DNA of 64,000 bases from an uncultured Chloroflexia bacterium (lineage in GTDB: Bacteria; Chloroflexota; Limnocylindria; Limnocylindrales; CSP1-4): the NCBI GenBank assembly GCA_963789725.1, contig CAWBLU010000003.1, forward strand, positions 387,170 through 451,169. The letters run 5' to 3'. Below are positions 10,631 to 35,500 of the stretch, one piece after another (positions within the stretch are counted from its first letter, which is position 1; the number at the start of each line of letters is the position of its first letter). Both the position numbers and the translations under genes were made by a program. The notes beneath the pieces were generated by a model that had not been told where the DNA came from, did no database searches, and saw only the letters and a list, made by a program, of their open reading frames with translations.

Positions 10631-10705
10631 GGGCCCGTAGCTCAACGGTAGAGCAAATGACTCTTAATCATTAGGTTCTCGGTTCGAATCCGAGCGGGCT
10701 CACCA
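10631..10705 (+). tRNA. tRNA-Lys (anticodon CTT)
   Basis: Folded by hand into a cloverleaf: 7-bp acceptor stem GGGCCCG/CGGGCUC with one G-U pair, D arm GCTC-AACGGTA-GAGC, anticodon stem AATGA/TCATT with loop CTCTTAA, T arm CTCGG-TTCGAAT-CCGAG, and an encoded CCA end. Confidence 0.85.
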
Positions 10706-13520: not shown

Positions 13521-13851
13521 GACGGCGACTCCGGATGGCGCACCGACGCTGGTGTCGTGACGCCCGCCACCAATGTACTACGCATTCGAGGGGCGGTCGG
13601 GCAGGTCCTTCCGGCGGCGCCAGACGCAACCGAGACGCTCGCAATCGCGCCTGGCCGCCCGGTTCGCGTCGGTGTCGTTGGACCCGCCGTCGTGCGGCGG
13701 CCGGCGCCGGAATGGTAATGTCCACACCGCGCCCGGCCGTGGGGCCGCGCCCAGTCCACGAGCCAACCGCCGATCGCGATCTGCCCATCCGAGACGAGCA
13801 TCGGAAGCGGAGCCACGCGATCGGCAGAATTGGGCAGCCGAGAGGAGAGTC

Positions 13852-16302
13852 GTGCGATACGGTCACTTCGACGATGAGGCGCGCGAGTACGTCATCACCC
13901 GGCCGGATACTCCTCTGCCGTGGATCAACTATCTGGGCAGCGAGGCCTACTTCGGGATCATCTCGAACACGGCCGGTGGCTACTCCTTCTATCGCGACGC
14001 CCGTCTCCGCCGCCTGACGCGTTATCGCTACAACAACGCCCCCCTGGACCTCGGCGGGCGCTACGTCTACCTCCGAGACGACGAATCGGGCGAGTTCTGG
14101 AGCCCGAGCTGGCAGCCGACACAACGTGAGCTGGACGACTACAGCTGCCGGCACGGCCTGGGCTACTCGATCATCGGCTCGAGCTACAACGGCATCCGCG
14201 GCGAGACCCTATATTTCGTGCCGCTGGGCGAGAATCTGGAGGTCTGGCGGATCCGAGTCACCAACGAGCGAAAGACTCCGGCCAGGGTCTCGCTCTTCGA
14301 CTCGATCGAGTTCTGCCTTTGGGAGGCGCTGGACGACAACACCAACTTCCAGCGCAACTACTCGACCGGCCAGGTCGAGGTCGAAGACGGCGTCATCTAT
14401 CACAAGACCGAGTACCGAGAGCGGCGCGATCACTTCGCCTTCTTTGCCTGCTCTGCTCCGCTGGCCGGCTTCGACACGCAGCGTGACGCGTTCCTCGGCG
14501 CATACCGCGGCTGGGACCGCCCCATCGTGGTCGAGAGCGGCAAGGCCGGCGACTCGATCGCTCACGGCTGGCAGCCGATGGGCGCCCATCACGTCAAGCT
14601 CGATCTCGCGCCCGGCGAGACCCGAGAGGTGATCGTCCTCCTCGGCTATCAGGAGAACCCCCAGGACGACAAGTTCGATCGGCCCGGATCCCAGACGATC
14701 AACAAGAAGCGGGTCAAGCCGGTCATCGCCCGCTACCTGCAGCCGGCCGAGGTCGAGCAGGCCTTCACCAAGCTGCGCGACTACTGGACGCAGATGCTGG
14801 GCATCCTCCAGGTCCGGACCGGCAGCGAGCACATCGACCGCATGGTCAACATCTGGAACCCCTACCAGTGCATGGTCACGTTCAACATGTCGCGCTCCGC
14901 CTCCGGCTTCGAGTCGGGCATCGGCCGCGGCATGGGTTTCCGCGACTCGAATCAGGACCTGCTGGGCTTCGTTCACATGGTTCCGGCACGCGCCCGCGAG
15001 CGCATCCTCGACATTGCGGCGACACAGCTGCCCAGCGGCGGGGCTTATCACCAGTACCAGCCCCTGACCAAGCGCGGCAACAACGACGTCGGCAGCGGCT
15101 TCAACGACGACCCGGCCTGGCTGGTGCTGGGCGTGGCCGCGTACCTGAAGGAGACGGGCGACACCTCGATCCTCGACGAGCAGGTCCCCTACGACAACCA
15201 GCCGGACACTGAGACGCCGCTCTACGAGCACCTCCAGCGTTCCATCCAATACACCCTCGACCGGGTCGGGCCGCATGGCCTGCCGCTCATCGGCCGGGCC
15301 GACTGGAACGACTGCCTGAACCTGAACTGCTTCTCGGAGACGCCCGGCGAGTCTTTCCAGACGACGGAGAACAAGGAAGGCGGCGTCGCCGAGTCCGTGT
15401 TCATCGGCGGCCTGTTCGTCCTGGCGGCCAACGAGATGGCGGCCCTGGCGGAGCGCCGGGAGGACGCGGCCGAGGTCCGGCTCGCCAGCGATGCCGCCGC
15501 CTCGATGACGAAGGTGGTCGAGACCGCGGGTTGGGACGGAGCCTGGTTCCGCCGCGCCTACGACTACTTCGGCCGCGTGGTCGGCTCGGACGAGTGCCCC
15601 GAAGGCTCGATCTTCATCGAGCCCCAGGGCATATGCATCGTGGCCGGCATCGGCCTGGACAACGGCATGGCCGACAAGGCGCTGGCATCCGTCGCGGAGC
15701 GGCTGGCGACGCCGCACGGCATCGTCCTGTGCAGCCCGGCCTTCACCTACTACCACGTGGAACTGGGCGAGATCTCCACGTATCCGGAGGGCTACAAGGA
15801 GAACGCGGGCGTCTTCTGCCACACCAACCCGTGGGTCATGATCGCGGAAGCGATGAGCGATCACCCCGACGCCGCGCTCGACTACTACATGCGGATCAAC
15901 CCGTCCGCCCGCGAGAAGATCTCCGACCTCCACCGCTGCGAGCCGTACGTCTACGCCCAGATGATCGCCGGCAAAGACGCCCCCACTCACGGCGAGGCCA
16001 AGAACTCCTGGCTGAGCGGCACGGCCGCCTGGAACTTCGTGGCCATCAGCCAGTGGATCCTGGGCATCCGGGCCGAGTACGACGGGCTGCGCATCGACCC
16101 GGTCCTGCCGGCGGATTGGGGCGACTACCGCGTCACGCGGCGGTTCCGTGGGGCCACTTACAACATCGCCGTCCGCAAAGCGAGGGGTTCGAGTGGGCGC
16201 GTGACCCGGCTGACCGTCGACGGTCGCGAAATCGCGGGCAACCTGCTCCCGCTCCCAACGGGGCCCGGCCAGTCTTTCGAGGTCGAGGCGTCGGTGGGCT
16301 AA
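13852..16302 (+). CDS. GH94 glycoside phosphorylase (cellobiose/cellobionic acid phosphorylase family)
   Basis: N-terminus RYGHFDDEAREYVITRPDTPLPWINYLG, plus GRADWNDCLNL and other GH94 signatures. GTG at 13852 follows GAGGAG; product about 816 aa. Confidence 0.85.
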   Translation: MRYGHFDDEAREYVITRPDTPLPWINYLGSEAYFGIISNTAGGYSFYRDARLRRLTRYRYNNAPLDLGGRYVYLRDDESGEFWSPSWQPTQRELDDYSCRHGLGYSIIGSSYNGIRGETLYFVPLGENLEVWRIRVTNERKTPARVSLFDSIEFCLWEALDDNTNFQRNYSTGQVEVEDGVIYHKTEYRERRDHFAFFACSAPLAGFDTQRDAFLGAYRGWDRPIVVESGKAGDSIAHGWQPMGAHHVKLDLAPGETREVIVLLGYQENPQDDKFDRPGSQTINKKRVKPVIARYLQPAEVEQAFTKLRDYWTQMLGILQVRTGSEHIDRMVNIWNPYQCMVTFNMSRSASGFESGIGRGMGFRDSNQDLLGFVHMVPARARERILDIAATQLPSGGAYHQYQPLTKRGNNDVGSGFNDDPAWLVLGVAAYLKETGDTSILDEQVPYDNQPDTETPLYEHLQRSIQYTLDRVGPHGLPLIGRADWNDCLNLNCFSETPGESFQTTENKEGGVAESVFIGGLFVLAANEMAALAERREDAAEVRLASDAAASMTKVVETAGWDGAWFRRAYDYFGRVVGSDECPEGSIFIEPQGICIVAGIGLDNGMADKALASVAERLATPHGIVLCSPAFTYYHVELGEISTYPEGYKENAGVFCHTNPWVMIAEAMSDHPDAALDYYMRINPSAREKISDLHRCEPYVYAQMIAGKDAPTHGEAKNSWLSGTAAWNFVAISQWILGIRAEYDGLRIDPVLPADWGDYRVTRRFRGATYNIAVRKARGSSGRVTRLTVDGREIAGNLLPLPTGPGQSFEVEASVG

Positions 16303-16432
16303 CGGGCCCCGCCCGCGGGAGCCTCGCCCGCGGGAGCCTCGCCCGGATGGGCTTCGTCCGGTAGGATTCGGCCCGCGTCCACTATCGCTACCGCTCGGTC
16401 CCGTTCACTCGGCCGGCTGGGGAGACCACTCG

Positions 16433-18832
16433 ATGACTGATGTCAAGGCGCGACCGGGCGCGAACGCCTACGGCTACTTCGACGTGGCCGCTCGCGAGTA
16501 CGTAATAACCCGGCCGGACACCCCGACGCCGTGGATCAACTACATCGGCGAGGGACGCTACGGCGGCATCGTCTCCAACACGGGCGGGGGCTTTTCGTTC
16601 GACCGCGACCCGCGCAACCGCCGCGTCAGTCGCTACCGCTACAACTCGATCCCGGTCGACCAGCCCGGCCGTTACGTCTACCTGCGCGATCAGGAATCGG
16701 GCGAGTACTGGAGCCCCACAGCCCGGCCGACGAAGGTCGAACTGGACGCCTACGAGTGCCGCCACGGTGCGGCCTACACGCGGATCTCCGGTTCACGCGG
16801 CGGTATTTCCGCGGAAATCCTCTACTTCGTGCCGCTCAGCCAGCTCGACGAGCCGGTGCCCTGCGAACTGTGGGTGCTGAAGGTCCGCAACGACGGATCC
16901 GGGCCGAGGCGGCTGCGCTCGTTCAGCTACGTCGAGTTCAGCTTCGCCGACGCCGTCAGCGACATGACGAACCTGGACTGGGCCCAGCACATCGTCTTCA
17001 GCTCGTGCCGTGACGGTGTGATCCGTGTGGCAACCAAGTTCAACCCGCTTACCTCGTTCTTCGGCAGCAGCGCGGCTCCGTCTGGATATACGTGCGACCG
17101 CGAGGACTTCGTCGGCCGGGGCCGGGACCTGAGCGATCCGATCGTCGTCGAGACCGGCACGCCGTCGGACGCGCCGTCCCCGCGAGGGAACAGCGTCGGC
17201 TCGCTCACCCACGACATCGACCTGGCGCCGGGCGAGGAGCGCCAGATCGTCTTCATCATGGGCACCACGGAACGGCCGGCCGAGATAGGCCGGGTGGTCG
17301 CCCGTTACTCGCAGCCCAGCGAGGTCACGGCGGCATTCCAGGCTCTGCGCGACGACTGGGACGCATACCTCTCGCGCTTTACCGTCGAAACGCCCGACGC
17401 CGACACAAACGCCATGATCAACTTCTGGAACCAGGTCCAGTGCCGGACGACGCTGTACTGGTCCCGTTTCGTGTCCGGCTACGAGTCCGGTCTCGGCCGT
17501 GGCATGGGCACGCGCGACAGCGGCCAGGACACGCTTGGCACCATGCACACGGTCCCGGAACACGCCAGGCGGATGCTCACCACGATCTGGAAGATGCAAT
17601 TCGCCGACGGCCATACCTGGCACCAGTTCTACCCACTCACCCTCGAAGGGGGACCGGGTCTGGCCGGCGAGTTTCCCGACTGGCCGCAGTGGTTCAGCGA
17701 CGACCACCTGTGGCTGATCATCTCCGTCTGCGCCTACCTGCGTGAGACGGGGTCATTCGACTACCTGGACCAGAAGGTCTCCTACGTCGACCACACCGAG
17801 GAGACGGTCTGGCAGCACATGTTACGGGCGGTCGACTTCACCCTGGCCAACCTGGGCCCGCACGGCCTGCCGCGATCGGGCTTCTCCGACTGGAACGACA
17901 CGCTCGACGTCGACCACGGCTCCGGGAAGGCCGAGAGCGTGTGGACGGGGATGCAGTTCTGCAAGGCCATGCTCGATTTGGCCGAGCTGTGCGAGAAGAT
18001 CGATCGGCCGGCAGACGCGAATCGATTCTCAGGGCTCCACGCGTCGATGGCAGCCGCTATCAACGACCACGCCTGGGACGGTGCCTGGTACGCCCGCTCG
18101 TTCGACGACGACGGCCTGCCGATCGGCATCGCCGGGGCCGCCCACCACGCCATCGACCTGATCCCCCAGAGCTGGTGCGTCCTCGGCGAGGTTGCCCCGC
18201 CCGACCGGGCCGAGCAGGCCATGGCCTCGGCTGACGAGAAGCTCAACACCAAGTACGGCATCGCCCTGATGTGGCCGCCCTACGACGGCGCCGACCCGCG
18301 CGTCGCCGGCATGGCCACGTACGTCCCGGGCGCCAAGGAGAACGGCGGCATCTTCTGCCACGCCAACACCTGGTCCATCGTCGCGGCGGCGATGCTCGGC
18401 CACGGCGATCAGGCTTACCAGTATTACCGCCAGATCCTGCCCCTGGCCCGCACAGACTCCGATCTGTACCAGGTGGAGCCCTACACCTACCCCCAGAACA
18501 TCTGCGGGCCGGCCCACCCGTCGTTCGGCCTGGCTCGCAACGCCTGGCTGACCGGCACCGCGGCGTGGACCTTCGTGGCGGCCACGCAGTGGATCCTCGG
18601 CATCAGGCCTACCTATGACGGCCTCCTTGTGGCCCCGGCACTTCCCGGTCAATGGCCCGGGTACAAGGCCCACCGAGAGTATCGCGGCACGGCCTACGAG
18701 ATCTCCGTCCGGCGCGAGGGCCCCGGCAACTCGGTGGTCATGGTCGTCGACGGAAAGTCCGTCGCCGGGGACGTCGTTCCGCCGCCCCCGCCGGGGACGG
18801 CGACCGTCGAAGTTGACGTGGTCCTGCGATGA
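16433..18832 (+). CDS. GH94 glycoside phosphorylase, paralog 2
   Basis: N-terminus YGYFDVAAREYVITRPDTPTPWINYIG and SGFSDWNDTLDV. 799 aa, paralogous to the upstream gene. Confidence 0.85.
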   Translation: MTDVKARPGANAYGYFDVAAREYVITRPDTPTPWINYIGEGRYGGIVSNTGGGFSFDRDPRNRRVSRYRYNSIPVDQPGRYVYLRDQESGEYWSPTARPTKVELDAYECRHGAAYTRISGSRGGISAEILYFVPLSQLDEPVPCELWVLKVRNDGSGPRRLRSFSYVEFSFADAVSDMTNLDWAQHIVFSSCRDGVIRVATKFNPLTSFFGSSAAPSGYTCDREDFVGRGRDLSDPIVVETGTPSDAPSPRGNSVGSLTHDIDLAPGEERQIVFIMGTTERPAEIGRVVARYSQPSEVTAAFQALRDDWDAYLSRFTVETPDADTNAMINFWNQVQCRTTLYWSRFVSGYESGLGRGMGTRDSGQDTLGTMHTVPEHARRMLTTIWKMQFADGHTWHQFYPLTLEGGPGLAGEFPDWPQWFSDDHLWLIISVCAYLRETGSFDYLDQKVSYVDHTEETVWQHMLRAVDFTLANLGPHGLPRSGFSDWNDTLDVDHGSGKAESVWTGMQFCKAMLDLAELCEKIDRPADANRFSGLHASMAAAINDHAWDGAWYARSFDDDGLPIGIAGAAHHAIDLIPQSWCVLGEVAPPDRAEQAMASADEKLNTKYGIALMWPPYDGADPRVAGMATYVPGAKENGGIFCHANTWSIVAAAMLGHGDQAYQYYRQILPLARTDSDLYQVEPYTYPQNICGPAHPSFGLARNAWLTGTAAWTFVAATQWILGIRPTYDGLLVAPALPGQWPGYKAHREYRGTAYEISVRREGPGNSVVMVVDGKSVAGDVVPPPPPGTATVEVDVVLR

Positions 18833-23216: not shown

Positions 23217-23692
23217 GCGACCCGTTTGTGCTGGCCCCGGCCGAGCGGGCCTTCCTGCTGGCGTGCCGGCGCATCGTAATGTGCACGGTCGCGGCCGATG
23301 GTTCGCCTCGCCCGGTGCCCATCTGCTTCGCCGTCGCGGACAGCCCGGCCGTGGAAGCGGAGTGTCTGTACACGCCGCTCGACGACAAACCGAAGCAGGT
23401 CCACGATCCGCGCCTGCTCGCGCGGGTCCGCGACATCGTCGCTCGCCCCGGCGTGATTCTCCTGGCCGATCGCTGGGACGAGGATTGGAGCCGGCTCGGT
23501 TGGTTGCGACTGCTCGGCCGAGCGCTGCTTTTGGAGCCCGGTTCGGGGCAGGCTGGCGGTGCCGAGGAGCACGCCTCGGCGGTAGCAGCTCTTCGCACCC
23601 GCTATCCCCAGTACCACGATCACGACCTGGCCAGTCGGCCGCTGATTCGGGTGGACATCACCTCGGCTCGATCCTGGGGCTCCCTCGTCTAG
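23213..23692 (+). CDS. PPOX-class (pyridoxamine 5'-phosphate oxidase-like) probable F420-dependent enzyme
   Basis: About 159 aa with the split-barrel FMN/F420-binding profile (RIVMCTVAADGSPRPVPICFA...). Start is TTG at 23213 overlapping the LLM stop, or alternatively GTG at 23228. Confidence 0.6.
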   Translation: MSDPFVLAPAERAFLLACRRIVMCTVAADGSPRPVPICFAVADSPAVEAECLYTPLDDKPKQVHDPRLLARVRDIVARPGVILLADRWDEDWSRLGWLRLLGRALLLEPGSGQAGGAEEHASAVAALRTRYPQYHDHDLASRPLIRVDITSARSWGSLV

Positions 23693-23799
23693 GGCGTAGG
23701 GCGTAGGGCGTTGGCGTCCGGGCGTAGGGCGTAGGGCGTAGGGCGTCCGGGCGGTTCGGCGGGCACTCGCCCGGCTCTCCGTCCGGCCGTCGTGCTAAC

Positions 23800-23966
23800 C
23801 TACCGCCAACCTTTGTTGCCGGCTCTGTGAGGCCGGCTTCCGGTCGATCCAGGCCGGGCATGCGGTCCAGAGAGGCCGCGGAGGAGCGAATGTTCGTCTG
23901 CGAGTCAAACCACCGCGCCGGTTCGGCCGGTGGCTTTTTTGTCCGGCCCGGCACTATCGGGGCCGG
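23800..23966 (+). promoter_or_regulatory. PyrR-dependent translation-coupled attenuator (leader) of carA
   Basis: Hairpin GCCGGC-tctgtgag-GCCGGC (23824-23843), then a PyrR box GGUCCAGAGAGGCCGCGGAGGAG (about 23864-23886) that overlaps the Shine-Dalgarno sequence of a leader ORF. Terminator CCACCGcGCC-ggttc-GGCCGGTGG followed by CTTTTTTGT (23910-23942). Confidence 0.7.
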
Positions 23967-23970
23967 ATGA
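23890..23970 (+). CDS. carA leader peptide (26 aa, MFVCESNHRAGSAGGFFVRPGTIGAG)
   Basis: ATG is 7 nt after GGAGGAG. The ORF runs through the terminator and its TGA overlaps the carA ATG (ggATGAtg). Confidence 0.5.
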   Translation: MFVCESNHRAGSAGGFFVRPGTIGAG

Positions 23971-25229
23971 TGCCTTCGGTGTCGCACGCCCTCAAGCAGC
24001 CGCCGTTTCCGCGGCCCAGCTCGGTCGTCGACCCGAGGGTTGGCGACTACGGCCCGGCCCTGCTCGCGCTCGAGGACGGGCGTTTATTCCCGGGCATCGC
24101 CTTCGGTTCGCAGCGCGCCGGCCAGGGCGACCTCGTCGTGAACACGAGCCAGACTGGCTACCAGGAGATCGCCACCGATCCCTCGTATGCGGGCCAGCTC
24201 GTAGTGATGACATACCCGCTGATCGGCAACTACGGCCGGGTCCACTATGACGACCAGTCCGAGAGGCCCTGGCTGCGCGGCCTGATCGTGGCGAACGCAA
24301 CGGCCGCAGTTCTGGACGATGCCCGGCAGCTGGCGACGATGCTGCGTGAGGCCAGCATCCCGGCAATCGCCGGCGTCGACACGCGCGCCCTCGCCCGTCA
24401 CCTCAGGGCCCACGGTAGCCTGCGGGCCATCGTGACCGCGCCGGGCGAGACGGACCCGGAAGAAGCGAGGGCTCGGGCTCGGGCCGTGCCGCGGTGGGAG
24501 GATCAAGATTTTGTGGCCGCGGTTTCGCCCGTCTCTGCTCGAGACGAAGGCGACGCGTCCGAGGGAGGCCCGCTCGTCGCCATCCTCGATTTCGGCCTCA
24601 AGACGAACATCGTGCGCAGCCTTCGCCGGCGCGGCGCCCGGGTGCGAATCCTGCCTCACACCGCGACGGCGGCCGACGCGCTGGCGCCGGAGATCGACGG
24701 CGTGGTCTTTTCGCCAGGTCCGGGCGATCCGGCCAGGCTGGACGGCCCGGTCGCGCTTGCTCGCCAGGTCATAGCCGACGGCCGGCCGCTGCTCGGAATC
24801 TGCCTGGGCCATCAGATCATCGGCCGCGCCGCCGGGGCAGACACTCGCCGGCTTCCGTTCGGCCACCATGCCGCCAACCATCCGGTCAAGGACCTCGAGA
24901 CGGGCCTGGTGCAGGTAACGGCCCAGAACCACGAGGTCACTGTCATCGCCGAGACGCTGCCGGACGCGAGCGGCTTCGTGGTCAGCCAGATCGACCTCAA
25001 CGACGGGTCCGTCGAAGGTCTGCGCCACCGCGCGCTGCCGATAGAAACGGTCCAGTACCACCCCGAGGGCGGCCCCGGCCCATTGGATGCGCTTGCGGTC
25101 TTCGACCGTTTCGTGACGGCCGCCCTGGCCCACCACGGCGGAGGAGAGCCGGTGCCGACGGTCGGCGCCGTCGAGCCACTCCACCTGGACACGGCGGAGC
25201 TGGCACGGCGCCTTCAGGGGATGAGCTAG
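23967..25229 (+). CDS. carA: carbamoyl-phosphate synthase small (glutaminase) subunit
   Basis: N-terminal domain ALLALEDGRLF..GxxxGEVVFNTSxTGYQE-like segment. C-terminal class I glutamine amidotransferase with LGICLGHQ (catalytic Cys) and the Y/H of the triad. Confidence 0.9.
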   Translation: MMPSVSHALKQPPFPRPSSVVDPRVGDYGPALLALEDGRLFPGIAFGSQRAGQGDLVVNTSQTGYQEIATDPSYAGQLVVMTYPLIGNYGRVHYDDQSERPWLRGLIVANATAAVLDDARQLATMLREASIPAIAGVDTRALARHLRAHGSLRAIVTAPGETDPEEARARARAVPRWEDQDFVAAVSPVSARDEGDASEGGPLVAILDFGLKTNIVRSLRRRGARVRILPHTATAADALAPEIDGVVFSPGPGDPARLDGPVALARQVIADGRPLLGICLGHQIIGRAAGADTRRLPFGHHAANHPVKDLETGLVQVTAQNHEVTVIAETLPDASGFVVSQIDLNDGSVEGLRHRALPIETVQYHPEGGPGPLDALAVFDRFVTAALAHHGGGEPVPTVGAVEPLHLDTAELARRLQGMS

Positions 25230-25897: not shown

Positions 25898-27226
25898 GTG
25901 AAGCTACTCCGAGCGCTCCTCATCGCTCTTCTTGCCGCGGCTGTCACGGCCTGCGACCTCTCCCCAACGCCCCTGCCGGCGTCCTCGCCGACCGGTCGCG
26001 TCACGCCGGCAAGGCCAACAGCGGGCGCCACCCCTATCGCCGCCCCTGCGACCAGCGTCGCGGTTACACCCACGGACCATCTCATAGTGGTGCGAGAGGC
26101 AGGCGGTGTCGGAGAGTTCTACGACCGCGCCACGGGCGCGAAGTTTGTGCCGCGCGGCATGAACTACATCCGCCTGGCGAACCAGACCAAGGCCGACGGG
26201 TCGGTCACGTTCGGCCATTCCGTGTTCGATCCCGGCCGGTACGACCAGCCCCGCGTGGGCGGCGCCCTGGAGAAGATTCACGCCGACGGTTACAACACCG
26301 TCCGCGTGTTCCTCAGTCCGGACACGATGGGCACGGCCGACGGCGGTCTCTCGCCCGAGTACATGAAGAACGTCGCCGATTTCCTGCGTCTGGCGAGCGC
26401 TAACGCCATCTACGTGATGTTCACCCTCGACTGGATCCCCGGCGGCAAGTACGGCGCGATCTTGAACACGGATTGCTGTTCGGCCTTCGCCCTGATGAAT
26501 GCCAACTTCCTGCCTCCTGCTGGCCTCGAGGCGAATCAGGTCTTTTACCGGGACTTCATTCACGGATTGCTGGACCTCGGAGCGCCCACGGAGTACGTAT
26601 TCTCGTACGAATTGAGAAACGAGATGTTCTACGACTCGGACTTGCCGCCGCTCTCGTTCAAGTCGGGCGTCGTGACGACGGCGAATGGCAAGTCGTACGA
26701 CATGGCCAAGGCGTCGGACAAGGATCTGATGGTGCGCGAAAACCTCGTGTACTGGATCGACCATATGCGCGCCTCGATCCAGGAGGTCGATCCGACTGCG
26801 CTCGTGAGCGTCGGCTTCTTCCAGCCGCAACAGCCGAACCCGACCCGAGAGGAGGACCCGCGTCTCGCGATGACCGAGCCGGCCATCTGGCAGTCCACGG
26901 CCGACTTCGTCGACCTGCACGCGTACCCGGGGTCCGGCTTGACCCTCAAGCAGTATGTCGAGAACTTCGGCATCAACGGCATGAAGCAGAAGCCGATTGT
27001 CATGGGCGAATTCGGCGGCGAGATCTCCCGGTTCCCGTCCGTCTCGGTGGCGGCGCAGACATTCGCGGCCTGGCAGGCGGAATCCTGCTCCTACGGCTTC
27101 GACGGCTGGTTGTTCTGGTCCTGGGATCTGAGCGAGCAACCCGACTTCTTCAACGCCTTGATGTATCAGGGCGCGATCAACGGCGTGCTCGCCCCCGTCG
27201 CGCGGCCGGATCCCTGCTCGGTTTAA
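25898..27226 (+). CDS. secreted lipoprotein, TIM-barrel glycoside hydrolase-like (GH5-like)
   Basis: GTG start; signal peptide with lipobox LLAAAVTAC, a Pro/Thr/Ala linker, then a domain with RGMNYIRL...GYNTVRVFL...DWIPGG pattern resembling GH5-type (beta/alpha)8 hydrolases. Family assignment is tentative. Confidence 0.45.
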   Translation: MKLLRALLIALLAAAVTACDLSPTPLPASSPTGRVTPARPTAGATPIAAPATSVAVTPTDHLIVVREAGGVGEFYDRATGAKFVPRGMNYIRLANQTKADGSVTFGHSVFDPGRYDQPRVGGALEKIHADGYNTVRVFLSPDTMGTADGGLSPEYMKNVADFLRLASANAIYVMFTLDWIPGGKYGAILNTDCCSAFALMNANFLPPAGLEANQVFYRDFIHGLLDLGAPTEYVFSYELRNEMFYDSDLPPLSFKSGVVTTANGKSYDMAKASDKDLMVRENLVYWIDHMRASIQEVDPTALVSVGFFQPQQPNPTREEDPRLAMTEPAIWQSTADFVDLHAYPGSGLTLKQYVENFGINGMKQKPIVMGEFGGEISRFPSVSVAAQTFAAWQAESCSYGFDGWLFWSWDLSEQPDFFNALMYQGAINGVLAPVARPDPCSV

Positions 27227-27376
27227 GGACGGCGAGTTGCGCCGGCCGGGACGACGGGGTCGACAGGCCGACCCTATGCCGGTCCTGGCGCCGATACCGC
27301 GGCCCACCTCGAGAGACGTAGATTGGCGTCATCGCCGGTCGGGGTAGGAAACAGGGCCGGCGACGGAGGCAACTCG

Positions 27377-27610
27377 ATGGACCCGATCACCGCCAGGATG
27401 CTCAGCCAGGCTCACATTTCCGAACTCCACGCCGAAGGCGCCGCCAACCGCATGGCGGCCGCGGCCCACAAGAAGAGCCGGGTCGAGTCGCCGTGTCGGA
27501 TCGAGGCGGTCGGTCGAAAGCCCCGAGTGGAGCTTCCGCAGGTCGACTGCTCCTGGTTCGAGCGACTCTGGGCGACGATCCGCCGCGCTATCCCTGCGCG
27601 CGCCGCCTGA
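27377..27610 (+). CDS. hypothetical small protein
   Basis: ATG preceded by GGAGGC; 77 aa; no recognisable domain. Confidence 0.3.
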   Translation: MDPITARMLSQAHISELHAEGAANRMAAAAHKKSRVESPCRIEAVGRKPRVELPQVDCSWFERLWATIRRAIPARAA

Positions 27611-27630
27611 CCTCGCCCGGGCGAAGCCGC

Positions 27631-27828
27631 TCAGCGCCGCACTGGGCGGCACATTTGCCCACTGGCCCCGCGCCGCGCGACGTTTAGCGAAAGCGACTCG
27701 CTGTGGTCGCGCTCGATCAGCGACATCGTCCCCTGAGCAACCCCGGCTATGCCCGCCAGCTCAAGCTGGCTCATCCCGCGCCGCTTTCGAACGGCCCTGA
27801 TGACAGCTCCGAACTGGACATCGTTCAC
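27631..27828 (-). CDS. XRE-family (Cro/CI-type HTH) transcriptional regulator
   Basis: IRAVRKRRGMSQLELAGIAGVAQGTMSLIERDH is a canonical HTH_XRE. Divergent from the membrane-protein gene. Confidence 0.7.
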   Translation of the reverse strand: MNDVQFGAVIRAVRKRRGMSQLELAGIAGVAQGTMSLIERDHSESLSLNVARRGASGQMCRPVRR

Positions 27829-28078
27829 GCGGCGATTGTCAACGAGGCCACTTCACGACCGCTTATCTGCGAAGCTATGTCCGCCAGTTCTGTTGGATGC
27901 GCGAAGCCGGCTGGAGGCGGGAGCCCGTGGTGATGACGGTCAAGAGTCGTGACCTCGCCGCGGCCGCATCGAACCTGGGGGCGGCGCCACCCGCGACGCC
28001 ATCCTCGGCCGCATCGAACCTGGGCGCGGCACCACCCTCGGCACCACCCGCGGCAGCGGCGACCGATGTGGGCCCCCG

Positions 28079-28585
28079 ATGAAACTGCACAGCGGCCTGA
28101 CGGTCAACGGCCGATCGTACTCCAAGGGCGACGAGATCCCGGGGTTCTTCGTCTACCCCTTCTTCCTCGTGCACATGCTGGCGTTCGGCGTCTCGGGCTT
28201 CGTCCTGGCCTACAGCGGCGCGCCAGCGCTGTTTCTGTTCATGCACGGCGGCATCGCGATCTTCGTCTACACCGTCTTCTATCTGGCCATCTTCGGCCTG
28301 GACGAAGTCAAGTGGATGTTCATCAACGCCGGACTGGGGATCTTCGGGATCCTCAGCCAGATCGACTGGTTGCTCTCCCTGTTCGGCCGCCGGGTCGCCG
28401 ACTACCCGGTCTACGTGCACATCATTCCGTTCCTCTACTTCGTGCTCTACACGTTCCTGATCCGTCACGCCCTGCTCGATCTGCTGGGCGCCCGAGACGA
28501 CGACGCGAAGAGGACCCGGGTGCAGTACGGCTACATCGGCGCGTCGGTGGCCTTCTACGTGTTCGCGCACGTGCTCGAGGGCTGA
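28079..28585 (+). CDS. hypothetical integral membrane protein (5 predicted TM helices)
   Basis: 168 aa with five strongly hydrophobic 20-25 aa segments. Start overlaps the stop of a short upstream repeat-containing ORF (ATGA). Confidence 0.55.
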   Translation: MKLHSGLTVNGRSYSKGDEIPGFFVYPFFLVHMLAFGVSGFVLAYSGAPALFLFMHGGIAIFVYTVFYLAIFGLDEVKWMFINAGLGIFGILSQIDWLLSLFGRRVADYPVYVHIIPFLYFVLYTFLIRHALLDLLGARDDDAKRTRVQYGYIGASVAFYVFAHVLEG

Positions 28586-28641
28586 CGGCGAGCGTCGCGC
28601 GGACCCCGCTCGTCTGGCCGCGCGTGCGGCCTTTCGCTTCG

Positions 28642-29670
28642 TCAGCCGTCCCAGCGGACCCGGACGTGCTGCCGGATACCGGGCAGCGGCATCGACGCGG
28701 CCTCCGCCTCCACAGCCGCTCGTTCCGCGGTCGAGAGCCGGCGCCACGACTCGATCGTGACGTTGGTTTGCGCGCGTCGCCACGTCCCGGCAATCTCGCC
28801 GCTCACAAGGACGGCCCCGGGCCAGACTCGGGGCGTCCAGAGCGCGCGACGATTGTCGGGGTCAGGGACCAGCAATTCCCGATCGGCTCCTTGCAGTAGG
28901 AAGTAGGCGTCCCCGCTCGGGAGAAGCCGAGCGAGCGCCGCCGATCCGCCGGGGGCACGGAACGCCGGCTCGTCTTCGGCCAGGATCCATGCGTCGCCGG
29001 CCGGCGTTCGGACCGGCGTCAGCGATTCGCCGAGCGCGGCGAACGCGGCCCGGCCGGCGGCGGCTCTCGGCCTGATCCCGGCCCACTCGGCAAATGCGGC
29101 GGGCGTGGCCGGCCCGAAGATGTGCAGGTAGCGGCGCGCAAGCTCGAGGCGTGCCTGGCGCGGGTCGACGCCCGGTGGCGGCACGGTCCAGATGGCCGGC
29201 TGCCGCGCCCCATCCCACCGGATCAGCACCGTGCCGGTCGGCGCGGCATACCTCAGGCTGTTCGGGTGCACGCCGAGCGCGTGCCCCACTTCGCCGTAGT
29301 TCATCCTTCGACCGTCGAGGAAGCCGTGTAGCCGGAGGGCGAGATCGTCCGCCCGGCGTCGCAATTCGCCGCCTTCGGCGAGCCGCCCGAGCGAGAAGAT
29401 CGCGAGGTCAACCTCGGCGACGACGTAAACGCTCCACCGAGGTCCCCAAACCTGCACGAGCGACGCGTCCTCCCAGGTTTCCGGTCTGGTCCCCTGAACG
29501 CGTGCATGGATCGACAGGACCGCCGCGCGAGGCACGCTGTCCTGCAGCCCCGCCCAGGCCGCCCGTCTGAGCGACACAGGGCCGGGCGGCAACCGCTCGT
29601 CGAGACCACCGACCGATCGTCGGTACCTGAGGATCTGCTCGCGCGTCAACTCGAGCCGGGCCGAGGCCAT
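28642..29670 (-). CDS. winged-helix DUF1006 protein, YcaQ/AlkZ-like (putative DNA glycosylase family)
   Basis: N-terminus LTREQILRYRRSVGGL...AAVLSIHARV and C-terminus LLPSGDAYFLL...RVWPGAVLVSGEIAGTWRR resemble the YcaQ/AlkZ HTH_42 family. The Q-phi-(Q/D) catalytic motif is not clearly conserved (LQD). Confidence 0.5.
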   Translation of the reverse strand: MASARLELTREQILRYRRSVGGLDERLPPGPVSLRRAAWAGLQDSVPRAAVLSIHARVQGTRPETWEDASLVQVWGPRWSVYVVAEVDLAIFSLGRLAEGGELRRRADDLALRLHGFLDGRRMNYGEVGHALGVHPNSLRYAAPTGTVLIRWDGARQPAIWTVPPPGVDPRQARLELARRYLHIFGPATPAAFAEWAGIRPRAAAGRAAFAALGESLTPVRTPAGDAWILAEDEPAFRAPGGSAALARLLPSGDAYFLLQGADRELLVPDPDNRRALWTPRVWPGAVLVSGEIAGTWRRAQTNVTIESWRRLSTAERAAVEAEAASMPLPGIRQHVRVRWDG

Positions 29671-29855
29671 TCGATGTCATCTCCGCGGAGAGCGGGTTCG
29701 CGCGACCACTGTAGCGGGCCACATCAAGCCGCTGCGAGTCGGCCCAGGCGCCGCGCGGGGACTAGCGCTCATGAACAGCGGCACGATCAGGGCCCGAGCA
29801 GCTCCTGGCTAGAGTAATGTGCTACCGTGTGCTACATGAAGACTGCGGCGCGAAC

Positions 29856-30158
29856 ATGAGCGAAGGGGAGGCACCCGCGCGTGTGGGGGTGCGCGAGCTT
29901 CGGCAGAACCTCTCCGTGTATCTGCGGCGCGTGGAGAGAGGGGAGACTCTCGACGTGACCGAACACGGTCGCCTGGTGGCGCGCCTTGCGCCGGCGCCGG
30001 CTCCGGAGGTGAGTATCCTGGACAGGTTGATCGCGGAAGGTCGAGCCACGCCGGCCAGCCGTTCGATCGGCGACCTTCCGGAACCGATCAAACTGGCGCC
30101 GGGCTCTGAGAGCGTCTCGGATGTGCTCCGCCGGATGCGCGAGGAAGAACGCTGGTGA
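29856..30158 (+). CDS. Phd/YefM-family type II antitoxin
   Basis: VGVRELRQNLSVYLRRVERGETLDVTEHGRLVARLAP is a Phd/YefM signature. Stop overlaps the vapC start. Confidence 0.7.
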   Translation: MSEGEAPARVGVRELRQNLSVYLRRVERGETLDVTEHGRLVARLAPAPAPEVSILDRLIAEGRATPASRSIGDLPEPIKLAPGSESVSDVLRRMREEERW

Positions 30159-30556
30159 GCCAGACCTATGTCGACTCGTCGGCCCTCGTGAAGTTGATCG
30201 TCGATGAGCCAGAAACCGATGCGCTGCGGCGGCATATCGCCTCGGCCGGGCCGCTTGCGTCCAGCATTCTCGCAACCGTCGAGGTCTCGCGGGCGGTCGC
30301 TCGGGTCGCGCCTGCATCGATGGCCGAGGTCGCCGCCGTGCTCCAGGCGCTGAACGTTATGGCCTTCGACGCCCGAATCGCCGCCCGCGCAGCCGCGCTG
30401 GGTCCGGCCAGCCTGCGTGCCCTCGATGCCATCCACCTGGCGACGGCTCTCGAGTTGCGGGACGAGCTGACTGCCTTCATCTCCTACGATGAGCGCCTGC
30501 TGGCAGCAGCCCGCGACCTGGGCCTGCCCGTGGTCGCGCCGAGCGGCTACTTGTGA
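30155..30556 (+). CDS. vapC: PIN-domain toxin VapC
   Basis: YVDSSALVKLIVDE ... DAIHLATA ... ISYDERL is a PIN fold with the acidic residues in place. Confidence 0.75.
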   Translation: MSQTYVDSSALVKLIVDEPETDALRRHIASAGPLASSILATVEVSRAVARVAPASMAEVAAVLQALNVMAFDARIAARAAALGPASLRALDAIHLATALELRDELTAFISYDERLLAAARDLGLPVVAPSGYL

Positions 30557-30792
30557 AGCGGACTCTGAAGGCTGACGAGTTCGACACGAGGTTCGACACG
30601 GGGCAGGACGTCACAGGCGACCTCGACCGGTCTGCTGCCCGCCGCCCCCTTCAGAAGGCCAGGCGCGTCAACGTGGACTTCCCGTCATGGATGGTCGAGT
30701 CGCTGGACCGCGAGGCGAAGCACCTCGGCGTCACCCGCCAGTCGGTCATCAAGATGTGGATCGCGGAGCGGCTGGAGAAGCGGGCGTCGTAG
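30553..30792 (+). CDS. ribbon-helix-helix CopG/BrnA-like antitoxin-family protein (orphan)
   Basis: GTG start overlaps the vapC stop. [15 protein letters not shown]...[38 protein letters not shown] matches the BrnA/CopG-antitoxin architecture. No BrnT-like toxin is adjacent. Confidence 0.55.
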
Positions 30793-31281
30793 GTAATGGG
30801 ACCAGGCGCTGGCATCGAACGTTGTCCGAGGTGAGTGAGCTACGAGTACACCCGCGAGCCGCGGCGTCTTCGCGCCAGCGCCGACGGCGCGGGCTCATTC
30901 TGAGTGAAACGTGGCGCTGAGAATGAGCCATCCCGCTCGCTGCCGTAGAAATCGCCCGAGGCAGACAGCAACTCTTGGAGGCACTTCGCCGAGCCCCCGG
31001 GCAAAGGACGTTTCGGCCGAGCTTCTCAGCCAACTCCCTGTCGCCGTGGACGACCCGGAGCCCGCGCCGAACCTTCGTCTCGGACGGGTATCCCTCTCCT
31101 CCGCTTACCGGTCGGCTCGAAAGGAGGGGAGGTTCTCGAATTCGCTGTGGCGCATCATGTCGGGCCCTGGACCGCTCAGCAGCCAGCGTTTCATTCCGGC
31201 CGATCATCCGGTTTCGCCCGTGGCCCGGGAGTTATGCTCAACGGCAAGTTGTTGGCCAGCGACGTCGTGGGGGTGGCGTGA

Positions 31282-32301
31282 ATGGACCCTGTGTATCAAT
31301 GGAAGGCCATTGAGAGCTCCTTCAGTTCCGGCCTAGTTCTTGGCAACGGAAGTTCCATTGCTTTCGACCGGAGGTTCGCTTACGGCTCTCTCAAGGGACT
31401 CGCCGTAGAAGAGGGCCTCATCACTGCCGACGTGGACAAGGTCTTTCGCCACCTCGACTCCGATGACTTCGAATTAGTGATGCGAATGCTCTGGCACGCC
31501 AGCCAAATCAACCAGGCACTCGAAGTCGAGGACCCAAGGACGTCGGCAGCCTACTCCTCGGTCCGAGATGCTCTGATCGCGGTGGTACAGGCTGTACACG
31601 TACCGTATGGGGCGGTCTCTGATCGCCTTCCCTTGGCTGCTGACTTCATGTCGCGCTTCTCCACCGTCGTCTCCCTCAGCTACGACCTCCTGGTCTACTG
31701 GGCCATCCTTTCGGCGAATGACGAACGGGCAAATCGCTTCAAGGATTGCTTCATTAGGGGGCAATTCAATCAAGACTGGCAGTGGCTTCGGCAACCCTAC
31801 CGCTCGAATTGGGCGAGCACTCTCGTGTTCTATCCGCATGGCAACCTCGCCCTGGCGGCTACGCTTAGCGGGGCTGAGTTCAAGATCCAAGTCGACGGAG
31901 GCGCTCTCCTGGAGACCGTTTTCGATCGTTGGCGCGAAGATGCGACCCCTTTGTTCGTAAGCGAGGGCACGTCCGAGCAGAAGCGCGCGGCGATCCGTCG
32001 AAGCCCGTATCTGTCCGCCGTCTACGACGAAGTCCTACCGGAGCTGGGAGAGAGCGTAGTGACTCTGGGATGGTCAATGGGCGAGAACGACGACCATCTT
32101 CTCGAAGCGATCTGTCGAAGAGGAACCCGGAGATTCGCCGTGGCGGTCGATCCCAACTCAGACCGCCTCGCTGAGAGCCAAGCCAATGTGCGCCGCCGGA
32201 TCAGCGGTCTGCTTCGTGAAGAATTGGGCGAAGTCGTCTTCTATGATTGGACCAGCCCAGGTTGTTGGATCAATCTCGATCCCGCGGAGGTCGACAGATG
32301 A
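31282..32301 (+). CDS. SIR2-like (SIR2_2/DUF4917-type) domain protein, candidate NAD-dependent defence effector
   Basis: 339 aa with LVLGNGSSIAF (GxGxS NAD-binding motif), SLSYDLLVYW (NYD-type motif) and FYPHGNL (HG motif), in the order and spacing seen in SIR2-like domains such as ThsA. Gene GC is about 57% against a roughly 70% background. Confidence 0.55.
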   Translation: MDPVYQWKAIESSFSSGLVLGNGSSIAFDRRFAYGSLKGLAVEEGLITADVDKVFRHLDSDDFELVMRMLWHASQINQALEVEDPRTSAAYSSVRDALIAVVQAVHVPYGAVSDRLPLAADFMSRFSTVVSLSYDLLVYWAILSANDERANRFKDCFIRGQFNQDWQWLRQPYRSNWASTLVFYPHGNLALAATLSGAEFKIQVDGGALLETVFDRWREDATPLFVSEGTSEQKRAAIRRSPYLSAVYDEVLPELGESVVTLGWSMGENDDHLLEAICRRGTRRFAVAVDPNSDRLAESQANVRRRISGLLREELGEVVFYDWTSPGCWINLDPAEVDR

Positions 32302-32384
32302 TCCCCTGGTGTTCTCGCCTGGCATGGGACGCCGCTTTCTAGCGATTAGGGCCATCTTCTGCGTCGGGTGCTGCTATCCTTCCC

Positions 32385-32534
32385 CCAGCCCTTGAGGCCG
32401 GGTCTGTGAGCCCGGCGGAAGTCAAAGAGACGGCTTGCCGGCGCTTTGACTCGCGGTCCTGAGAGGCCGGGGAGGAGAACGATGCGCCCGTGTAAGCTGA
32501 ACCACCGCGCCCGCGAGGCCGGTGGCTTTTTTGT
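32385..32534 (+). promoter_or_regulatory. PyrR-dependent translation-coupled attenuator (leader) of carB
   Basis: Hairpin GCCGGG-tctgtgag-CCCGGC (same loop as the carA leader, compensatory stem changes). PyrR box GGUCCUGAGAGGCCGGGGAGGAG at 32456-32478. Terminator CCACCGcGCC-cgcga-GGCCGGTGG then CTTTTTTGT (32502-32534), with a stem identical to the carA leader. Confidence 0.7.
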
Positions 32535-32538
32535 ATGA
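32482..32538 (+). CDS. carB leader peptide (18 aa, MRPCKLNHRAREAGGFFV)
   Basis: ATG is 5 nt after GGAGGAG. The TGA overlaps the carB ATG (gtATGAcg). Shares ...NHRA..AGGFFV with the carA leader peptide because both span the same terminator. Confidence 0.5.
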   Translation: MRPCKLNHRAREAGGFFV

Positions 32539-35500
32539 CGGATGAGCCCTTGACACTTCCTGCAACTCAGCCCCTCGTGGCGCCGCGAGCGGAGCGGCGC
32601 AAGCCTGAGAGCGCGCTCATCATCGGTTCGGGGCCGGTCGTGATCGGGCAGGCGGCCGAGTTCGACTACGCCGGCACGCAGGCCTGCCGCGCCCTCCGCG
32701 CCGAGGGCGTCCGAACCATCCTGGTCAACTCGAACCCCGCGACGATCATGACCGACGCGGAGGTGGCCGACGCCGTCTACCTCGAGCCGCTCACCGTCGA
32801 GGCCATCGAGCAGGTCATCGCCAGAGAGCGGCCCGAGGGGCTCCTCGCCGGCCTTGGCGGCCAGACCGGCCTCAACCTGGCCGTGGCCTTGGCCAAGGCC
32901 GGCGTCCTCGACAAGTACAACGTCCGGCTCATCGGAACGCCGCTCGAGGCGATCGAGATGGCCGAGGACCGCGAGCTGTTCCGTGACCTGCTCGACCGGA
33001 TCGGCCAGCCGTACGCGCCCAGCTGCATCGTCGAGGGCGAGACGGATGAGGCGCGCGACAAAGCGGCCAAAGAGGCCCTGGCCGAGATCGGCCTCCCAGC
33101 GATCATCCGGCCGGCGTTTACGCTCGGGGGCACCGGGGGCGGCATCGTCGAGACGGAGGCGGCGTACTGGGAGCGCACCCGCACCGGCCTTCGGCTGAGC
33201 CCGATCAACCAGGTCATGATCGAGCGCTGCCTGGTGGGCTGGCAGGAGATCGAATACGAGGTCATGCGCGACGCGGACGACACCTGCATCGCCGTCTGCT
33301 CGATGGAGAACGTCGACCCGCTGGGCGTCCACACCGGCGACTCGATCGTGGTCGCGCCGGTCCAGACGCTGCCGGACCCGGTCCACCAGCGCCTCCGCAG
33401 TGCCGCGCTCTCGATCATCCGGGCGCTCGGCGTGGAGGGCGGCTGCAACGTCCAGTTCGCGCTTTCGCCGGACTACACCGAATACGCGGTCATCGAGGTC
33501 AACCCGCGCGTCAGCCGATCCTCCGCGCTGGCGAGCAAGGCGACCGGCTACCCGATCGCGCGTGTCGCGGCGCAGATTGCCGCAGGGCGGCGCCTGGCAG
33601 AAATCCCGAACGTAGTGACCGGCACGACGGTCGCGGCTTTCGAACCGGCGCTGGACTACGTCGTCGTCAAGCTGCCCCGCTTCCCGTTCGACAAGTTCCC
33701 CACGGCCGACCGATCGCTGGGCAGCCAGATGAAGGCGACCGGCGAAGTGATGGCGATCGACCGAACGTTTGGGTCGGCGCTGAACAAGGCCTTGCGCGCG
33801 CTCGAACAGGCCGGCGCCGGCTTCCTGGCCGAGAACGCCGCCTGGCGGGCGACGCTCGACTACCTGATGGAGCCCGCGGTAGCCCAGCCGATGGTGACGG
33901 TCGACGGCGGCGGGCTGCTGTGCGAGGCCCGGGCCCATGCCGAACGAGCCGCCTATCCGATCGTCCTCAAGCGGTTCCTGGCCCCATCCGACTCGCGGCT
34001 GTGGCGGATCCTGGCACTGCTGCGGCGCGGCATGCCGGCCGAGCGGATCCGCGGCGTGACCGGCATCTCGGCCTGGTTCCTGCAGGAGTTCGAGCGAGCG
34101 ATCACGCTCGAGCGCGACGTTCGCCGGATGGGCGCGCGCATGACCGATCCACGGGACGAGGAGACGGCCGAACTCCTGGCGACGGTGAAGCGGGCCGGCT
34201 TCGGGGATCGCGAGCTGGCGCAGATGGCCGGCGTGCCGGCCGAGTCGATCCGGCTGGCCCGGATGGAGCTGGGCCTCGTGCCCGGCTACGCGATGGTGGA
34301 CACGTGCGCGGCCGAGTTCGCCGCGGAGACGCCCTACTTCTACGCCACGTACGCCGCGGCCGGCTCGGAGCCGGAACTGCCGCCCGTGGAGCGGCCAGCG
34401 GCGCTGGTGATCGGCAGCGGCCCGGTGCGGATCGGGCAGGGGATCGAGTTCGACTATTGCGCCGTCCAGGCCGCCGCCGAGCTGCGCGCCCAGGGCTGGC
34501 AGGCCGTGATGATCAACTCCAACCCCGAGACGGTCTCGACCGACTTCGACGCCTCGTCACGCCTCTACTTCGAGCCGCTTGATCCCGAAAGCGTCCGTTC
34601 GGTCGTGGAAGCCGAGTCGCCGGCTGGCGCCGACGGCGTTGCCGCGCCGCTGCTCGGCGCATTCGTCCAGTTCGGCGGCCAGACGCCCCTCAACCTGGCC
34701 GAGCCGCTCGCGGCCGCCGGTATCCCGCTCCTGGGCGCGAACCTCGAGACGATCGACCAGGCCGAGGACCGCATCCGCTTCGCGAACCTGGTCGAGTCGC
34801 TCGGCATTCCCCAGCCCGAAGGCGGCATGGCCCGATCGATAGAGGAGGCGCTGGCGCTGGCCGACCAGATCGGCTACCCGGTGATCGTTCGGCCCTCGTT
34901 CGTCATCGGCGGCCTGGCCATCGACTTCAGCTACTCGCCGTCCGATCTCGTAAACCAGCTGGAGCGCGCGACCGTCGTCGATCCCGACCGGCCGGTCCGG
35001 ATCGACCGCTATCTGGAAGGTGTCGAGGTGGACATCGATGCCGTGGCCGACGGCGAGACGGTCCTCATTCCCGGCCTGCTCGAACACGTCGAACGGGCCG
35101 GCGTTCATTCCGGCGACTCGGTCGGGATGTTTCCGCCGCAGACCGTGTCCGTGGCGGACCAGGAGTTGATCGTCGCCGCCATGGACCGCATCGTGCGTGC
35201 CCTCGACGTCCACGGCCTGGTCAACGCCCAGTTCATCGTCCGAGAAGACGGCGTCTACTTGATCGAGGTGAACCCGCGGGCCAGCCGAACCGTGCCGTTC
35301 ATGAGCAAAGTGACCGGCGTGCCGATGGTCAAGCTGGCCGTCCGGATCGCCCTGGGCGAGAAGCTGGCGGACATGGGGTGGGGGAACGGGCTGCTGGCGC
35401 CGCCTCCCCTGGTCGCGGTCAAGGCCCCGGCATTCTCCACGGCCAAGCTGCGCGGCGTGGATCCGTCCGTGGGGCCGGGGATGCAGTCGACCGGCGAGGT

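Follow-up and report, generated by a model that had tools for sequence, protein, structure and literature searches.

Tandem PyrR-type hairpins and a leader reading frame fused to the start codon as a candidate operator of carA and carB in Limnocylindria (Chloroflexota)

We analyzed a stretch of 64,000 nucleotides (nt) of contig CAWBLU010000003.1 from an uncultured Chloroflexia bacterium whose genome belongs to the Limnocylindria (Chloroflexota) (hereafter the window, whose numbering is used throughout), in which carA and carB, the genes for the small and large subunits of carbamoyl-phosphate synthase (CPSase), are each preceded by a leader that combines a PyrR-type RNA hairpin with a short open reading frame (ORF) and a terminator-like hairpin. 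The carA leader had been described in an initial annotation as a Thermus-type, translation-coupled PyrR attenuator. The features that we found in and next to it are the following.

23793 to 23801, plus strand: promoter-like extended −10 element (TGCTAACCT), recognized by the conservation of TG-n-TAnCCT in relatives.
23810 to 23815, plus strand: CCUUUG, the 5′ strand of a lower stem, with the Shine-Dalgarno (SD) sequence of the leader (CGGAGG, 23879-23884) as its pairing partner.
23818 to 23837, plus strand: box 1′, GCCGGCU[CUGUGA]GGCCGGC, a variant first PyrR-type hairpin, assigned by positional homology to box 1 of relatives.
23840 to 23857, plus strand: extra hairpin CCGGUC[GAUCCA]GGCCGG, an insertion specific to the carA leader of this genome, seen in folds.
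23862 to 23879, plus strand: box 2, the canonical PyrR-type hairpin GCGGUC[CAGAGA]GGCCGC, from the alignment to RF00515 and an exact-pattern search.
23880 to 23886, plus strand: SD of the leader ORF, GGAGGAG, abutting box 2, from reading of the sequence.
23890 to 23970, plus strand: carA leader ORF of 26 codons plus TGA (MFVCESNHRAGSAGGFFVRPGTIGAG), from reading of the sequence and from conservation.
23910 to 23940, plus strand: intrinsic-terminator-like hairpin CCACCG-c-GCCG/CGGC-CGGUGG followed by C and U6, from a terminator scan, folds and the RF00515 helix.
23942 to 23966, plus strand: GC-rich hairpin immediately 5′ of the carA start, from the minimum-energy fold.
23967 to 25229, plus strand: carA, CPSase small subunit of 420 residues, from Pfam and NCBIfam matches.

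The PyrR-type box that had been claimed for this leader corresponds to the hairpin at 23862-23879, to which the upper hairpin of the Rfam PyrR model RF00515 aligns, and direct reading places GGTCCAGAGAGGCCGCGGAGGAG at 23865-23887. An SD at the 3′ end of the box and a 26-codon leader ORF opening at ATG 23890 were likewise present as described. The leader TGA (23968-23970) overlaps ATG 23967, the first start codon of the 420-residue carA ORF, in the form ATGA, and this overlap, also part of the earlier description, is kept in relatives. The GC-rich terminator hairpin proposed inside the leader ORF was detected, together with its T run, by the terminator scan; its stem occupies 23910-23933 and is followed by a C and by T6 at 23935-23940. 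The identity of carA was established by TIGR01368 (E=1e-109) and by the domains CPSase_sm_chain and GATase. Since the family match begins at residue 31, the protein carries an N-terminal extension, and this extension is kept in relatives, in which carA starts at the overlapped codon and shares the segment KQPPFPR..VVDPR. The region at 23942-23966 was found to lack a good SD for carA.

The transcription start of the carA leader is predicted at about 23807-23809. A sigma-70 consensus scan found no −35/−10 pair at the promoter-like motif of this leader. TG-n-TAnCCT stands at a constant distance from the boxes in nearly all aligned carA and carB leaders, and it is probably their promoter, with transcription starting just 5′ of CCUUUG. 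Between this motif and the stop codon of the PPOX-like gene that lies upstream, the heptamer TAGGGCG is repeated in eight tandem copies (23690-23746; also readable as a 28-nt unit repeated 2.2 times), which are rich in G tracts on the plus strand. The repeat is missing at the equivalent place in the closest relative, L001, and other short repeats are found 5′ of the promoter in other relatives, such as L008 and L010.

A box search revealed a paralogous leader 5′ of carB, at 32372-32538 and 7 kilobases (kb) from the carA copy, with the following features.

32372 to 32380, plus strand: promoter-like extended −10 element (TGCTATCCT), from alignment with the carA copy and relatives.
32397 to 32416, plus strand: box 1′ of carB, GCCGGGU[CUGUGA]GCCCGGC, a variant.
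32421 to 32450, plus strand: GUCAAAG...CUUUGAC, a hairpin inserted between box 1′ and box 2 of carB, from folds and alignment.
32453 to 32477, plus strand: box 2 of carB, CGGUC[CUGAGA]GGCCG (hairpin at 32454-32469), followed by the SD GGAGGAG.
32482 to 32538, plus strand: carB leader ORF of 18 codons plus TGA (MRPCKLNHRAREAGGFFV), with an ATGA overlap (32535-32538) with the carB ATG at 32535.
32502 to 32532, plus strand: terminator of the carB leader, CCACCG-c-GCC/GGC-CGGUGG followed by C and U6, inside the leader ORF.
32535 to 36035, plus strand: carB, CPSase large subunit (NF003671, 1326 bits).

The exact box GGTCCNGNGAGRCC occurs twice in the window against 0.09 occurrences expected, a count that none of 100 shuffled sequences reached, and the two sites lie directly 5′ of carA and carB, with none elsewhere in the window. 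In the carB leader the letters of the box are GGTCCTGAGAGGCC, followed by GGAGGAG, and box 1′ differs from that of carA by a compensatory stem change. The terminators of both leaders have GC-rich stems of 9-10 base pairs (bp) followed by U6, and both begin at a fixed distance of 20 nt 3′ of the leader AUG. Since carA and carB are separated by about 7 kb, each CPSase subunit gene needs a leader of its own. The interval between them (25898-32301) is taken up by unrelated genes, which encode a GH5-like protein, an AlkZ-like DNA glycosylase on the minus strand, a toxin-antitoxin pair of the Phd/PIN type (29817-30556) and a DUF4917 protein.

The closest relatives of this carA, ranging from 95% to about 70% identity, come from peat, fen and soil, in metagenome-assembled genomes (MAGs) of Candidatus Limnocylindrales/Limnocylindria (Chloroflexota). 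Nearly all of them share one layout upstream of carA, consisting of TG-n-TAnCCT, CCUU(U/G), two tandem CCGGUC[CNGNGA]GGCCGG hairpins, an SD within a few bases 3′ of box 2, and a short ORF. The two-box module has a fixed length of 67 nt in nearly all relatives (about 150), and their canonical box 1 reads GCCGGUC[CNGNGA]GGCCGGC. The 5′ hairpin of the carA leader, which the initial annotation had left uninterpreted, is, judging from its position, the homologue of this first PyrR-type box in a variant form, with the hexaloop CNGNGA retained and UCC altered to CUC. The hairpin inserted behind it is missing from most of the aligned relatives, and it looks as if a box had been duplicated and had then decayed, with a box-like stem (CCGGUC/GGCCGG) and a scrambled loop.

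The tandem pattern was also searched for in metagenomes, where it was found at 120 loci, 106 of which could be classified by blastx of the gene 3′ of the boxes. This gene was carA in 88 cases and carB in 17, that is, in 105 of the 106 classifiable loci; the tandem module appears to be dedicated to the two CPSase genes. Altogether, the element is kept 5′ of carA or carB in about 180 loci. Loci entered the metagenome set by virtue of their box, and the terminator set by virtue of CCACC..GGTGG, which makes counts of base pairs in these sets uninformative.

A leader ORF was present in 44 of the 57 genome-derived carA upstream regions, and in 42 of these 44 the leader stop fell into one of three positions relative to the carA start: −1 (NTGA overlap) in 32, +3 (UGAGUG) in eight and +2 (UGAUG) in two. 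Nine of the 57 genome loci have no leader, the box and SD standing directly before carA. This arrangement, with box 2 and the SD directly before carA (around position 3900), is seen in the Limnocylindrus MAGs L041, L042 and L048, where a tRNA gene lies immediately 5′; by eye, its anticodon loop matches that of a tRNA-Lys(CUU) encoded in the window (10631-10705, plus strand).

When the genomes and metagenomes were taken together, all 137 short leaders (9-59 codons) ended in TGA, as compared to 23 of 41 genes in the window, and in 125 of these leaders the stop overlapped or abutted the start codon of a long ORF. The control for this junction was made by distance, because internal in-frame carA starts count as coupled and open frames run far upstream at this GC content; stops in shifted frames lay within 12 nt of the real junction in 28 of 274 cases. 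The overlap also withstands large changes in leader length; in L005 it persists despite an insertion of about 80 nt. An open frame of 26 codons is not significant by itself at 68% GC, and the other two frames of the related leaders contain only about 1% stop codons; the significance of the leader ORF comes from its conservation across relatives.

Two further arrangements were seen at the junction. In L047 (3853-3950) the leader and carA form one continuous frame, which takes in the terminator hairpin and its U run. In a leader family ending CUGAGUGAUC (L013, L015, L018, L020, L027, L036 and L038), the junction lies about 80 nt 5′ of the carA core, and ribosomes arriving in two different frames each encounter a UGA at the carA GUG start (UGA-GUG; GUGA). 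The possibility of an arginine-sensing leader peptide was also considered and rejected: arginine accounts for 12.8% of the residues in frame and for 13.1% and 25.1% in the other two frames, and the window leaders contain no tandem arginine runs.

Box 2 follows the upper-hairpin consensus of RF00515, a stem of (A/G)GUC/GGC(U/C) closed by the hexaloop CNGNGA, in both the carA and the carB copies. RF00515 aligned this 18-nt hairpin and the terminator helix of the carA leader at high posterior probability, with the antiterminator part of the model deleted. The consensus fold of 37 leaders from the window's family contained the two box hairpins and the terminator hairpin. No antiterminator was found in this consensus fold, nor in stepwise folds of the nascent transcripts of the window leaders, in which the 5′ arm of the terminator never paired with upstream sequence; a 3-bp CCU/AGG pairing drawn by RNAalifold was judged spurious. 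The presence of a terminator in a leader that has no antiterminator fits a ribosome-dependent model of the Thermus type.

In the minimum-energy fold of the carA leader, CCUUUG pairs with the CGGAGG that includes the start of the SD, forming a lower stem that encloses three hairpins, not one. This pairing receives modest support from relatives, in which the flank duplexes have a mean energy of −9.5 kcal/mol compared to −6.8 kcal/mol for shuffled flanks. CCUU co-occurs with AAGG and CCUG with UAGG, the change between them probably representing a single evolutionary event, and the Rfam PyrR consensus has CCUU/AAGG as its lower stem.

The terminator is distributed unevenly among the leaders. Of the 76 leaders in the HRA..AGG family, which includes both leaders of the window, 68 have a terminator-like hairpin with a U run, compared to 8 of 63 in the other families. 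What the whole class has in common is the box, SD, leader and junction, with the terminator as an extra layer in the window's family. Because the terminator is confined to one leader family, translational repression and coupling look like the core mechanism.

Leaders of pyrR itself provide a point of reference within the phylum. The search for PyrR homologues returned only Ktedonobacterales-like PyrRs, encoded in pyrR-pyrB-pyrC-carA operons. Ahead of these operons lie one PyrR box, an SD and a leader ORF of 42-78 codons, together with a U6-U7 terminator; the leader overlaps pyrR as ATGA in five of seven such operons (L062, L064, L068, L202 and L203). On a contig labelled Nitrosotalea (L059, 2480-8305), which is probably a misbinned bacterial one, pyrB-pyrR are followed by a 1440-residue carA-carB fusion ORF, and a PyrR box, an SD and then T7 stand directly before pyrB. 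In L070 and L071, pyrR is preceded by a Dehalococcoidia-type leader in which no SD adjoins the box (UCCCGUGAGGCUGG) and a U-rich terminator comes after it, which suggests a Bacillus-type switch. At least three designs of PyrR leader appear to coexist within the Chloroflexota.

Taken as a whole, we consider it probable, if some way from certain, that the carA and carB leaders each join an operator for an RNA-binding protein of the PyrR type to a leader ORF that is translated, and that they act by translation-coupled attenuation. From the anatomy of the leaders, their duplication and their conservation, we infer PyrR binding, a response to pyrimidines, regulated termination and reinitiation, which could be combined as follows. 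When pyrimidine nucleotides are high, PyrR bound to the hairpin or hairpins would lock the SD in the closed lower stem and leave the leader untranslated; the terminator hairpin would then form, and transcription would stop at the U tract before carA. Any mRNA produced by read-through would be a poor template for translation, since carA lacks its own SD and would depend on termination and reinitiation by the leader ribosome at AUGA. When pyrimidines are low, PyrR would leave and a ribosome would load on the leader. This ribosome, trailing RNA polymerase closely, would cover the terminator's 5′ arm, which begins 20 nt 3′ of the AUG, prevent termination and then pass to the carA start. The hairpin at 23942-23966 may serve to make carA initiation dependent on the leader ribosome. 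Control of this class, PyrR-type and coupled to leader translation, is already known; the present case stands out for a tandem-box module that extends across the class and for the strictness with which the leader stop is fused to the starts of carA and carB.

Several observations weigh against this interpretation. At the gathering threshold, the Rfam scan returned no match in the carA leader, with RF00515 reaching 25.8 bits where the gathering score is 54 (E=0.16 for 401 nt). The RF00515 scan that had been proposed as a check of the initial annotation thus bore it out in the alignment of the hairpin and terminator and failed to do so in the score. However, leaders directly 5′ of pyrR in other Chloroflexota also fall below the threshold (43.4 and 38.3 bits), and since these genuine pyrR leaders are missed as well, the low score reflects the Firmicutes bias of the model. 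The Rfam PyrR model, with which a survey across 24 lineages including Chloroflexi genomes was carried out (PMC3766115), misses GC-rich PyrR elements of the leader-ORF type.

A second difficulty concerns pyrR, which was not found in the 64-kb window by a regular expression for the phosphoribosyltransferase motif, nor by tblastn with the Ktedonobacterales PyrR in the window and all the Limnocylindria loci fetched (about 180, of a few kb to about 15 kb each). In addition, the box 1 copies of the window are altered in their top pairs (GGCU/GGCC and GGGU/GCCC as compared to GGUC/GGCC), with the hexaloop CUGUGA kept, and insertions of 20 and 33 nt widen the spacing of the boxes in the two leaders. 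The helices are nearly invariant, with 0-1 compensatory pairs and no covariation support. The leader peptides show no codon-position signature and no third-position excess, so that only the act of translation and its end point, and not the encoded peptide, seem to be conserved; that the leaders are translated is deduced from the conservation of the ORF and junction. Other leader families keep the ORF and junction without a terminator, and regulated termination may be secondary. Finally, the proposed mechanism leaves the ribosome only about 45 nt of transcription in which to load and advance, which would require tight coupling or a pause of the polymerase.

The alternative that survives best, although we regard it as unlikely, is control at the level of translation only. 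PyrR, or another reader of the hairpin, would block the leader SD, and repression would reach carA and carB purely through stop-start coupling. The hairpin with U6 would then be a constitutive or leaky terminator, or a structure opened by the leader ribosome, and any transcriptional effect would arise through the action of Rho on untranslated RNA. The occurrence of the leader ORF and the TGA/start junction in every leader family of the class, the concentration of terminator-like signals in the HRA..AGG family, and the nine genome loci with the box and SD directly before carA all agree with this explanation. So does a proposal made for M. tuberculosis, in which a Rut site within the coding sequence of pyrR would supplement PyrR control with premature termination by Rho (PMC13650167). 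However, both window leaders have strong terminators, and the U tract is kept in 68 of 76 members of their family, which is hard to explain if termination is irrelevant.

It is much less likely, in our view, that the hairpins have a reader other than PyrR, be it another RNA-binding protein or a ligand that binds them directly. This explanation has its basis in the finding that no pyrR was seen in the window or in the roughly 180 Limnocylindria loci, and it would agree with the occurrence of the tandem module before carA or carB, and never before pyrR, pyrB or pyrC, in 105 of 106 loci. The fetched loci are so short, however, that the absence of pyrR from them says little. Moreover, the hairpin has the PyrR consensus in its stem (GUC/GGC), its loop (CNGNGA) and its lower stem (CCUU/AAGG), and the same motif lies directly 5′ of pyrR in other Chloroflexota.

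A classical Bacillus-type attenuator, in which PyrR stabilizes an anti-antiterminator and thus frees the terminator, and in which the leader ORF is incidental, is more improbable still. RF00515, which is built on that mechanism, does align the binding hairpin and the terminator, and GGCCGCGGAGG is, read by eye, partly complementary to the terminator 5′ arm CCACCGCGCC. Nevertheless, cmscan deleted the antiterminator of the model, none appeared in the nascent folds or in the consensus of 37 leaders, and the leader ORF and junction are conserved far above chance. As for a chance match, or a hairpin and U6 that merely terminate the PPOX-like gene, the E value of 0.16 and the commonness of open frames at 68% GC lend it scarcely any credibility, and it is refuted by the comparative data, namely two paralogous copies in different contexts, about 180 conserved loci, and an element that lies about 220 nt 3′ of the PPOX stop codon and 3′ of the conserved promoter-like motif.

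Beyond the PyrR-dependent, translation-coupled attenuation that we favor, a more far-reaching interpretation may be put forward, tentatively and with more doubt than conviction. Across the Limnocylindria, carA and carB, and apparently only these, would each stand under a rigid 67-nt two-hairpin module closed by an anti-SD/SD pairing, followed by an upstream ORF whose UGA is fused to the structural start, and this could amount to a new operator geometry or to a two-level logic. If one PyrR oligomer bound both hairpins cooperatively, or if a different reader did so, the operator geometry would be new; if ORF-mediated termination and reinitiation were primary and the terminator an add-on of one subfamily, the system would have a two-level logic undescribed for PyrR systems.

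The control of these genes is of wider interest because carbamoyl phosphate feeds both pyrimidine and arginine synthesis, so that a major branch point of metabolism is set by the way in which carA and carB are regulated. Each genome offers the same design in two paralogous copies, and there are more than 130 natural variants of it that differ in leader length, in the presence of the terminator and in the type of stop-start junction, a series that could separate the transcriptional from the translational layer. Limnocylindria are abundant in soil, peat and lakes, and we know of no cultured representative. Elsewhere in the window, a hybrid histidine kinase of 1788 residues with multiple PAS and GAF domains and a receiver domain is encoded at 4934-10300 (minus strand), and two tandem GH94 paralogues of the cellobiose/cellodextrin phosphorylase type lie at 13573-18832 (plus strand).

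These leaders can be compared with several known systems of pyrimidine regulation. They share with the pyr attenuators of B. subtilis, on which RF00515 is modelled, the consensus of the binding hairpin, the CCUU/AAGG lower stem, a downstream terminator and the control of pyrimidine or CPSase genes, whereas they have no antiterminator/anti-antiterminator switch, involve a leader ORF and fall below the gathering threshold. Attenuation of pyrBI and pyrE in E. coli depends on UTP-sensitive pausing of the polymerase and uses no RNA-binding protein. A leader ORF there also spans an intrinsic terminator, whose hairpin is blocked by a trailing ribosome, whereas the window leader has no U-rich pause region 5′ of its terminator.

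Translational repression of pyrR in Mycobacterium smegmatis was reportedly described by Fields and Switzer (J Bacteriol, 2007). That system has a GC-rich box of the UCCNGNGAGG type, a ribosome-binding site in or adjacent to the stem stabilized by PyrR, and control at translation initiation. The leaderless Limnocylindrus variants (L041, L042 and L048) resemble it, and the nine leaderless genome loci fit the Mycobacterium type. The window leaders fall outside this type, since their sequestered SD is that of the leader ORF and not that of the structural gene, and since an intrinsic terminator is present.

The Ktedonobacterales-like pyrR leaders are alike in having a box, an SD, a leader ORF with the terminator inside it and an ATGA overlap, and they score below the RF00515 threshold as well (38-43 bits). 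They differ in their single box, with an AGUCC/GGCU stem, in their position before pyrR-pyrB-pyrC-carA and in their longer leaders (42-78 codons).

For the pyr leader of Thermus (strain ZO5 / T. thermophilus), an attenuator controlled by PyrR and dependent on leader translation was reportedly proposed by Van de Casteele and colleagues (J Bacteriol, 1997), and a review by Turnbough and Switzer (MMBR, 2008) is said to cover it; to our knowledge, this model has never been tested biochemically. In this model, as in the window leaders, the SD of a short ORF adjoins the box or overlaps with it, the ORF extends across the terminator, there is no antiterminator and the stop overlaps the next start. 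The system differs from ours in that Thermus has a pyrR-pyrB-pyrC operon where the window has monocistronic carA and carB, and in that the window leaders have a second upstream box (a variant here, canonical in relatives) and belong to a mesophilic Chloroflexota lineage of peat and soil. Both window leaders combine the adjacency of box and SD, a terminator within the ORF and the ATGA overlap. The Thermus-type architecture assigned to the carA leader thus holds for all of its named elements, which are present and conserved.

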